Part shown: positions 61,101 through 64,000 of the stretch, piece after piece | How positions within the stretch are numbered: the stretch's first letter is position 1 | How the letters are laid out: every line of letters starts with the position of its first letter | Assembly (NCBI RefSeq): GCF_003334305.1 | Contig: NZ_QOWS01000004.1 | From: Escherichia coli | GTDB taxonomy: Bacteria; Pseudomonadota; Gammaproteobacteria; Enterobacterales; Enterobacteriaceae | Reading direction: 5' to 3' (one strand) | DNA: 64,000 bases | Program-made: the position numbers

Positions 61101-64000
61101 CCGGATGCTATTATAAGCGGCAATAGTGTAAATAATGATAATATCGCTATCAGCGAAATGCTATTTGACATTATTATTCCCTGATAACCAAGAATGAATT
61201 TCTACGCCCAATTTATCATCCACTTCAACAAGTTCGCCATAGCCAGTTAGCGCGCCATTTACACGTATTTTTATTTTTTTCTCAGATTCAGGAAGCAGAG
61301 ATATTATTCTTTTTGCACAGAGTTCGTCTATTTCATATAGATTCATTATTTTCTTACCAAGAACAAACTCAATTTTTACAGGCAAGTCTTCAAAACTATT
61401 AATCATCTGATCGTCATTTTCATCATAAATCTCACTCTCGTTTTTTTTGATATCAAAATCATCTGTTTCAAAATCTTCCTCGTACTCAAAATGATCAGCC
61501 ATTTTTAACTCCTCTGGATAAATTAAATCACAAATTTTTGTATTATAAATAACCGCATAAGCCAAATTATTTGAGATTAATAAAACATCACCAACTTCAA
61601 TATCAACAAGACTTCTGTAACATGTTTTACTAAATCCAATTACAAAATGAATGGACCAATATAATGATTTTTTGTCTAACGCTGGAGCGTTTCCGTATTG
61701 GCAGACTGTGACTTTATCTAACCAAAGATTCAATTCCCCTGTTCATATTCTTATTAGTGGTTGAGCAGGGCTCAATACTCCATCAAATACTTTACCTACG
61801 TGCAAACGATTATATTTTAGTTCAGGATGCTTTAGATTTAACGGGGAACTGGATAAACTGAGCCATTCCCCTATTAACCTTTCCGTTTCTGGCATTAAAG
61901 CCATCCCAGCGAGCTCAGATGAAATTAAGGGAAATATTTCTCCAAGCAATACCCATCCAGACCAGCTGCCACTCTCTTCTGCTATCGGTAACCATTTAGC
62001 ACTAAATTCGGGCATTAATAATGCAACATCTTCGCCATTTTCTTTCCAATTTTGAAAAGTGGTTTCAAACGTATGAGTGTTTCGATTTACTTTCCTCAGA
62101 CCGAACATTAACTTTCATCCTTCTGATCGTTTTCGAATTTGCTTTCATTTTCTTGCTCCTCATAAGGCTGATGTCGTTGTCCTTGTCGTTCATCTTGCTC
62201 AGTCAATACCCAACGTTGTGCTGTAACTCATTATGAAAACTATTTAATTCCCTCATCATTGATAAGGTTGGACATCTCTTTCAACATGAGAGTCATTGAA
62301 GCTTTCGACCAATTTAGCGGAATGATAGGGCTTGGCGCTTCATGCAAAGTTCCCGACTTGTGGATATAGTTATAGCTTTCGGGAAGTGCCATTTCTGGTA
62401 CGCTCCTGCCATTTGCACCAATCATATTCTCGCCTGTTATTTGGGCCAATGATCTATTCATAAATTGTACTGAGTCATTCAAATACTCTTCCTTTCTTGA
62501 TTCTTTATAAACAATTGCTGCTGATTTTGCATACCATGAGTCAAAAAACCATTCTGCTTCTGTTGATGGAATGAAGCTCTTTTCTCTTTTTGCATGCGAA
62601 TTTTGATCGGTATCGGTTTTAATATCATTGAACCAAAAATTTGCCGACTGATAATTATCCTTCTCGTATCTTTTTATACCATACGGACCTGCTAGTTTTT
62701 TAACTATTTTTAGAACTTGCTCTTTTCTTCTGGTGTTTATCTTTGAAAGATTTGTAGGATAAATAACATTAAGTAAAGCCGCATCGGCTTCTCTGTAATG
62801 TTTATCTTTTTCCAGATAACCTGGGGATTCTCCCCCTAAATCAAGCTGTAACGTTATTCTTTCATAACCTTTATCTATGAGGTGGTTCAACCTCGTTGTT
62901 GAAAGAGTTTCATCCAGTTCATTGACTTTAGCTTCGCGTAGTAAATCAGAGACAAAAACAGAGTCTTTCTTCGAGAGTAGGTTTGACAAACGTTCCAGTC
63001 CAGAGGTCACCAGTGCAACGGAAGATGTGTTTAATCGGGCATCTTCTTCCCATGCTCCGGAATCTTCCATAACATAGAAATTGGCTTTATCCAGATAAGC
63101 AATCAGCAGCGCAACCGACTTTAATCGGTCACCTTTTTGCCAATCTTCAGCGTTAATAGTACCAGTGTTGATTGCTTGTATAAGGAGATCAAGGTAAAGA
63201 CCTAACGCATCATTTTGTTTATGGTTCCACAGCTGCGGCTTGCCTTCTTCCTGCACATCTGCCATCACGGGGGAGTTGCTGTCAAATCGGATATGCACAG
63301 CATTCATTTGCACGGGAACTCCATCCAGTCGTTTTGGGTTGCTAATGACGTCCTGCATCCGCTTAATCTGGTCGGGCGTAGACATATAATCCCACAGGGT
63401 GAGCAGAACCTTTTTTGCGGCTACACTATTTCCCTGATCTGATACTAATGCCATATAGCCCCATAAACTATCCCTCAACCAGACAGCATCATAGTGGGTT
63501 TGTGCCGCTGTTTTGTCATCTTCGAAAGTAGAAGCAAGAATAAACGTTCCCCAGGGTTTCTCCGTCAACGTTAACTTTCGTGTGTTTTCTGTTAATGTTA
63601 GCAATCCTTGAATTTCGTCTTTGGTATAGTGGCTCTTTATTTCATTTTGTAATTTGGCTGAGTGAATCAAAAGACGATAATTAGGATACTTATCTGGATT
63701 TAACGATAAATAACTTTTATCTGTTGCTGCCCCCGTGGAATTAAGAATGTTAAATACAGATTCACTCGTCACTTCTGCCCCTGTCGCCTGGCATGTGCCG
63801 CACGAAAATATACCAGCGAGCAGAAGAGTTAATGCAGATTTCCCTTTCATAAAATATTCCATCAATCGTTTGTTAAAAGCGTAGATAACCACTTATTTAA
63901 CAACTTGAAAATAAGGTGTTTTACCTGGGTTGTTACAAAAGGATTGCATTGCGTAAACGCTTTTTATTTACAACAAAATGGGGAAGTATTACGGCGATTG

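Follow-up and report, generated by a model that had tools for sequence, protein, structure and literature searches.

A Trp122-to-stop change in epaO as a probable step in the decay of the Escherichia coli ETT2 island

When a single stop codon falls inside a gene of the SpaO/YscQ family, is the gene dead, divided into parts of which one is still useful, or read through to its end? The window that we analysed, a stretch of 64,000 nucleotides of Escherichia coli DNA (NCBI RefSeq assembly GCF_003334305.1, contig NZ_QOWS01000004.1), raises this question near its right end, where epaO, a gene of the island for ETT2 (the second type III secretion system of E. coli), is interrupted by an in-frame TGA. 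An earlier note on this sequence had described two halves in one frame on either side of that TGA, which together would make a protein of SpaO length (~315 codons), and had left room for expression of the C-terminal SpoA domain. We find that both halves do belong to one gene, and that this gene is very probably an ordinary pseudogene, its TGA being a neutral step in an ETT2 decay that continued after a disabling deletion.

Translation of the minus strand from the ATG at 62108 to the TAG at 61161 gives 316 codons (315 and the TAG) with exactly one internal stop, a TGA at codon 122 that occupies 61745-61743 and appears as TCA on the plus strand. The gene thus consists of the ATG, 120 sense codons, the TGA, 193 sense codons and the TAG, much as the earlier note had it. 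A listing of open reading frames (ORFs) presents it in two pieces, 61743..62108 (121 aa) and 61161..61733 (190 aa, with a mechanical TTG start), which share one frame and lie four codons apart, with TGA ACA GGG GAA between them. As read in translation, the TGA is the only epaO lesion in the window, and the gene is free of frameshifts there. The parts of the gene are as follows.

61746..62108, minus strand: epaO codons 1-121, the SpaO_N-domain part, whose MFGL N-terminus falls on position 3 of the NF006018 profile.
61743..61745, minus strand: TGA nonsense codon, epaO codon 122, from translation; TGG (Trp) in other lineages and ancestrally.
61161..61742, minus strand: epaO codons 123-315 and the TAG, from translation, in the frame of the N-terminal part.
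61533..61679, minus strand: SPOA1-like region, codons 144-192, from the SpaO SPOA1 chain 4yx5_A, which is matched weakly.
61500..61514, minus strand: candidate internal translation start, with GAGGAG at 61514-61509, the spacer TTAAAA and the ATG of codon 203 at 61502-61500.
61185..61394, minus strand: SPOA2 / FliMN_C domain, codons 239-308, from Pfam PF01052 and chains in the PDB.

Profile searches with the 315-residue EpaO, in which W had been restored at codon 122, place the protein in the SctQ family over its whole length. Residues 2-315 match positions 3-303 of the 303 in NCBIfam NF006018 (YscQ/HrcQ family type III secretion apparatus protein) with 490.2 bits against a cut-off of 223, and TIGR02551 (SpaO_YscQ) is matched with 199.7 bits against a cut-off of 100.8. 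Pfam PF01052 (FliMN_C, SPOA) is found in residues 239-308 (E 8.1e-11); for the SPOA1-like region, PF26304 is precomputed for close EpaO homologues. Among PDB chains, residues 243-309 match SPOA2 of SpaO (4yx1_A, E 4.3e-13), and residues 144-192 match SPOA1 of SpaO weakly (4yx5_A, E 0.0013); the C-terminal domain also matches Spa33 (4tt9, E 3.4e-11) and YscQ-C (3uep, E 9e-8). A word-indexed protein search with EpaO did not reach Salmonella SpaO; homology to SpaO is assigned because of the PDB chain matches and the NCBIfam profile. The gene order of eivJ remnant, epaO, epaP, epaQ, epaR and epaS, found in the window and in strain A7 and likewise in O157 and Escherichia albertii, puts epaO in the slot that it would have in an inv/spa-type operon, with the SctP (SpaN) gene on one side and the SctR (SpaP) gene on the other. 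To judge by these matches and by its frame, epaO is one SctQ gene cut by one stop inside its N-terminal domain, and hence in the window a pseudogene of the SctQ family rather than a working member.

Among the closest known systems is SpaO of Salmonella pathogenicity island 1, an SctQ protein made in two forms, SpaO-L and SpaO-S. Its gene likewise stands between spaN (eivJ in E. coli) and spaP (epaP), EpaO aligns in full to the SctQ profiles and through its C-terminal SPOA2 to the SpaO crystal chains, and the candidate internal start of epaO is also at codon 203. In contrast to SpaO, however, the long form of EpaO is cut by the TGA at codon 122, the internal start is an ATG with a strong Shine-Dalgarno (SD) sequence rather than a GTG, SPOA1 and SPOA2 are joined by an acidic linker that is 12 residues longer, and the surrounding secretion system is non-functional.

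What stood at codon 122 before the TGA can be read from orthologues. In the alignment, O157:H7, ST2747, E118 and ATCC 8739 have ATA TGG ACA where the window and O104:H4 have ATA TGA ACA, and TGG (Trp) is found here again in the E. albertii EpaO homologue, which is 50% identical and belongs to a syntenic eiv/epa cluster. Because TGG stands in all four E. coli lineages and in E. albertii, the lesion is read as a G-to-A transition that turned an ancestral Trp122 (TGG) into a stop. The alignment is otherwise collinear, in keeping with the earlier description of a point nonsense lesion rather than a deletion.

Two observations on EpaO in other genomes may be recorded here. The E. albertii cluster (GCA_008326585.1, locus piece 6001-6912) is fully syntenic across the eiv, epa and epr genes; its EpaO shares no more than 50% identity with that of E. 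coli and is without the 12-residue acidic insert of the SPOA1-SPOA2 linker, and a divergence of this size is far above expectation for vertical inheritance between sister species. N-terminal EpaO fragments of 193-194 aa are common as well (clusters of 338 and 360 sequences); they end at about codon 193, have Trp at 122, and may represent another lesion in other strains or cuts at contig ends.

We considered how far the TGA allele has spread by searching 5426 complete E. coli genomes with 39-nt megablast queries centred on the codon, of a length at which a mismatch of the central base leaves no 28-base word. Of these genomes, 3210 carry epaO. The exact TGA 39-mer occurs in 1084 of the 5426, one copy in each, and TGG on the flanks of the window or of O157 in 1504; the remaining epaO carriers have a more divergent TGG haplotype. 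Eight TGA carriers were drawn from across the match list, and all eight are annotated with 'internal stop' and have, besides the TGA, the junction of a large deletion that in the window lies ~490 bp upstream of it.

Relative to O157:H7 EDL933 this deletion removes 8,737 bp, flanked by the imperfect repeats CATAATGAG and CACAATGATG, and takes with it a GhoT-like gene, eivF, eivG (the SctC secretin), eivE, eivA (SctV, export gate), eivC (the SctN ATPase) and eivI, along with a small ORF and the greater part of eivJ. A 39-mer spanning the junction occurs in 1925 of the 5426 genomes, and a chimeric query that joins the junction and TGA 39-mers is fully covered in 1079, the two sites lying within about 530 bp of each other. 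Thus 1079 of the 1084 TGA carriers (99.5%) also have the deletion, and a further 846 genomes, ATCC 8739 among them, combine the deletion with TGG. On the simplest reading of this nesting, the deletion came first and the stop later, in one sub-lineage of those that bear it; by the time of the nonsense mutation the island would most likely have been without its ATPase, export gate and secretin.

Among the TGA carriers are O104:H4, O111:H8 and LY180, a derivative of E. coli W; we take these to belong to phylogroup B1, and ATCC 8739 and NCTC86 to phylogroup A. By descent, we infer, the allele has reached about a fifth of the E. coli sequenced, largely phylogroup B1. This distribution of carriers fits a comment in the literature that pseudogenes of epaO, eprJI and orgB follow phylogroup (PMC5422975).

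Other genes of the island are broken as well. Positions 40001-64000 of the window are identical, base for base, to 3822858-3846857 of E. coli strain A7 (NZ_CP028767.1), and the pseudogene calls that we give are those made by the Prokaryotic Genome Annotation Pipeline (PGAP) on the identical A7 sequence. The region is the ETT2 island beside the glyU tRNA, in the order tRNA-Gly, pkgA (glycoside hydrolase family 15, GH15), eivJ remnant, epaO, and the TAA that ends the eivJ remnant and the ATG of epaO (62108) overlap as TAATG. PGAP annotates epaO itself as a pseudogene ('frameshifted; internal stop') and marks seven further ETT2 pseudogenes at 48703-59458, namely ygeF-like, ygeK, orgA, eprJ, eprI, eprH and epaS. 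The features beyond epaO that matter here are the following.

62240..63850, minus strand: pkgA, glycoside hydrolase family 15, now abutting the eivJ remnant (ORFs and annotation).
62228..62229, no strand: junction of the 8,737-bp eivJICAEGF deletion (alignment with O157:H7 EDL933).
62108..62227, minus strand: 3' remnant of eivJ (spaN/invJ homologue), the last 120 nt, N-terminus missing (PGAP, A7).
58339..59458, minus strand: epaS (sctU) pseudogene, frameshifted and with an internal stop (PGAP on A7; split ORFs in the window).
56044..57225, minus strand: eprH (prgH homologue) pseudogene, internal stop (PGAP on A7).
55439..56030, minus strand: eprJ (sctI) and eprI (needle) pseudogenes, both frameshifted (PGAP on A7).
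54113..54692, minus strand: frameshifted pseudogene of orgA, whose product partners the N-terminal domain of SctQ (PGAP on A7).
52612-53244: ygeK pseudogene, internal stop (PGAP on A7).

An island already without eivF, eivG, eivE, eivA, eivC, eivI and most of eivJ, and with at least six other pseudogenes, is the context that was absent from the earlier note. It is a familiar one: an 8.74-kb deletion isoform and the loss of an 'eivJICAEGF fragment between two small direct repeats' have been described (PMC11068852, PMC5422975) and match the deletion in the window, and ETT2 attrition, epaO/eprJI/orgB pseudogenes that follow phylogroup, and frequent deletion of eivJICAEGF are all published (PMC5422975, PMC7058095, PMC11068852). 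The window shares with the known attrition isoforms (the 8.74-kb right-end deletion; bovine and avian pathogenic E. coli panels, RefSeq) its glyU site, its 8,737-bp deletion and its set of pseudogenes, epaO included, and differs from them in nothing material. In ATCC 8739 the same deletion is accompanied by different pseudogenes, eprK carrying IS1 and orgA having a stop, with eprH, eprI and eprJ intact; decay after the deletion therefore appears to have run independently in each lineage.

We suggest that the locus reached its present state in three steps. The 8,737-bp deletion would have come first and removed the eiv genes; Trp122 would then have changed from TGG to TGA in a lineage that bore the deletion, and the change would have been selectively neutral, since the ATPase, export gate and secretin of the island were already gone; the TGA allele would finally have spread by descent. 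Translation from the native ATG would now end after 121 residues, full-length EpaO would not be made save by rare near-cognate readthrough, and any SPOA2 fragment started at ATG203 would be without a secretion apparatus to serve.

Several points weigh against this account. The order of events comes from parsimony on counts rather than from a genome tree, and recombination could in principle give the same nesting. Papers reviewed in PMC11068852 and PMC3977695 report that degenerate ETT2 islands affect serum resistance, motility and invasion, and it is a presumption that every remnant ETT2 gene is without function. Finally, the window allele is intact downstream of codon 203 and its SD-ATG pair is perfectly conserved, so that a short product is possible.

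This last point leads to the rival that survives best, in which epaO is split and still useful, the SPOA2 fragment (codons 203-315) being kept for a function independent of ETT2 secretion. Salmonella SpaO is made in a long form and in a short form that starts at GTG codon 203, and the short form of YscQ starts at Met218 (PMC4443714, PMC6358110), which supports the earlier remark that genes of this family give a C-terminal product by internal initiation. In epaO, a strong candidate for such a start stands where SpaO has its proven one: GAGGAG, a 6-nt spacer and the ATG of codon 203, between the SPOA1-like and SPOA2 regions and 36 codons upstream of the latter, with a predicted product of 113 aa. 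The arrangement is invariant in the alignment of five E. coli lineages, and E. albertii has GAGGAATTAATGATG at this position. Expression of the C-terminal domain, envisaged in the earlier note, thus has its sequence requirements in place independently of the upstream TGA, and whenever there is transcription of the operon, ribosomes may still make a 113-residue SPOA2 fragment. In favour of a kept function one may add that SPOA2 of the window allele has no further disabling lesion, and that motility and flagellar phenotypes are published for deletions of ETT2 genes (PMC11068852). A variant of this proposal has a larger SPOA1-SPOA2 fragment arise by re-initiation just after the TGA, and one candidate function would be an interaction with other machines that contain SPOA domains, such as flagellar FliM/FliN or SctQ of the locus of enterocyte effacement (LEE).

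The variation among TGA alleles argues otherwise. We read ten of them (the window, O104:H4 and the eight sampled carriers), and five of the ten have further lesions downstream of codon 203, inside the supposed product: two lack 1 bp of the A-run at codon 277, one has gained 1 bp in the A-run at codon 220, and two have lost the stop (TAG to TAC, with codon 4 of epaP changed as well). The allele of the window, which is that of A7, has the private charge changes N278K and E280K in SPOA2. Codon differences within the deletion clade have nonsynonymous to synonymous ratios of 6:1 and 8:4, compared with about 28:25 in deep comparisons; the numbers are small, and their direction suggests relaxed constraint. 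The known partners of the protein are broken or gone (OrgA frameshifted, EivC deleted), and the conservation of GAGGAG may reflect only that of the PEEL peptide. From these alleles it appears that the short C-terminal product is probably not maintained, and we regard a split but useful epaO as unlikely.

Two details of the sequence bear on the same region. The secondary epaO lesions of the TGA clade cluster in the poly-A runs GAGAAAAAAATA and ATCAAAAAAAAC. At codons 278-280 (window 61266-61277) the A7 lineage reads AAA ATA AAA (K-I-K), against AAT ATA GAA/GAG (N-I-E) in almost every other allele, and an A-rich run is lengthened by this.

As for a restart nearer the TGA, the TTG at 61733 was rejected as a genuine start and treated as a mechanical ORF call; the GGGGAA that precedes it is only two bases upstream, an improper spacing. 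Re-initiation at this TTG after termination at the TGA may occur.

A more specific form of the same idea, that epaO now yields the short SPOA2 only and that this orphan FliN-like fragment has been co-opted for the flagellar C-ring or for the LEE sorting platform of enterohaemorrhagic E. coli, seems to us very improbable. If it were true, the fragment would contribute to the motility and virulence phenotypes of 'degenerate' ETT2 islands in ~1000 sequenced lineages.

A further rival has full-length EpaO still produced through recoding of the UGA, as selenocysteine or by efficient programmed readthrough. Of the stop codons of E. coli, UGA is the leakiest, and tRNA-Trp, decoding it as a near-cognate, would bring back exactly the ancestral Trp; this general background is what the proposal has in its favour. 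The local sequence offers it little: a SECIS-like (selenocysteine insertion sequence) hairpin, sought in the 70 nt 3' of the UGA, was not found, the folding being no better than that of shuffled sequence (z = -0.32), and an Rfam scan of 60900-62400 at E <= 1 gave no match save one to CrcZ elsewhere, which is put down to chance. Ancestrally the residue is a Trp rather than Cys or Sec, and the TGA allele is derived and sits in a clade in which the rest of the machine is gone. The base that follows the UGA is an A, and UGA-A is a fairly efficient terminator. On the folding, the Rfam scan and the Trp of the orthologues we rejected selenocysteine and programmed readthrough at codon 122, and give recoding exceedingly little chance; nor does anything suggest that background UGA readthrough has been selected in epaO. 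That the TGA might be a sequencing or assembly error in a gene that is really intact has a practically negligible probability and is refuted by the population data, with the identical 39-mer in 1084 independently sequenced complete genomes and 'internal stop' in the annotation of all eight carriers sampled.

The reading of epaO as a decayed pseudogene leaves one annotation to be accounted for, namely the 'frameshifted' part of its PGAP label. The PGAP reference for epaO is the O157 protein WP_001303644.1 (ECs3726, 987 bp, 328 aa). The O157 gene is short of 1 bp at codon 12 (the counterpart of window 62074), as a result of which the frame of the native ATG ends at codon 31, and the 328-aa ORF is a chimera in which an out-of-frame upstream ATG inside eivJ reads into the epaO frame. 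The state longer by 1 bp is common to the window, ST2747, E118 and ATCC 8739, and the MFGL N-terminus that it encodes is kept in E. albertii, falls where the family profile begins and has its first codon in overlap with the stop of eivJ. The 'frameshifted' flag was therefore not accepted as evidence of another lesion in the window: the 1-bp difference is a loss peculiar to O157. The epaO of O157:H7 Sakai and EDL933 is thus the same gene inactivated in another lineage of the same island; unlike the epaO of the window, it retains TGG at codon 122 and the eiv genes beside it, and its lesion is the 1-bp deletion of codon 12. Fox et al. mention, without coordinates, a stop codon in Sakai epaO (PMC7058095), which is probably this separate O157 lesion.

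Part of this picture was already known, since epaO is annotated as a pseudogene in RefSeq and ETT2 attrition is in the literature. What is added here is the exact codon change, its frequency in the population, its nesting in the deletion clade, an intact internal start together with evidence against its preservation, and the O157 annotation artefact. The artefact skews RefSeq calls of epaO, in that the chimeric ORF of O157 counts as 'intact' and the truly intact 315-codon alleles (ST2747, E118, ATCC 8739) as 'frameshifted', and it can mislead surveys of ETT2 integrity. The TGA at codon 122, present in 1084 of 5426 genomes and almost always accompanied by the 8,737-bp deletion, is a clean lineage marker. 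For the biology of E. coli the lesion carries little weight: it would be a textbook case of a horizontally acquired secretion island that, once disabled by a deletion, decays step by step.
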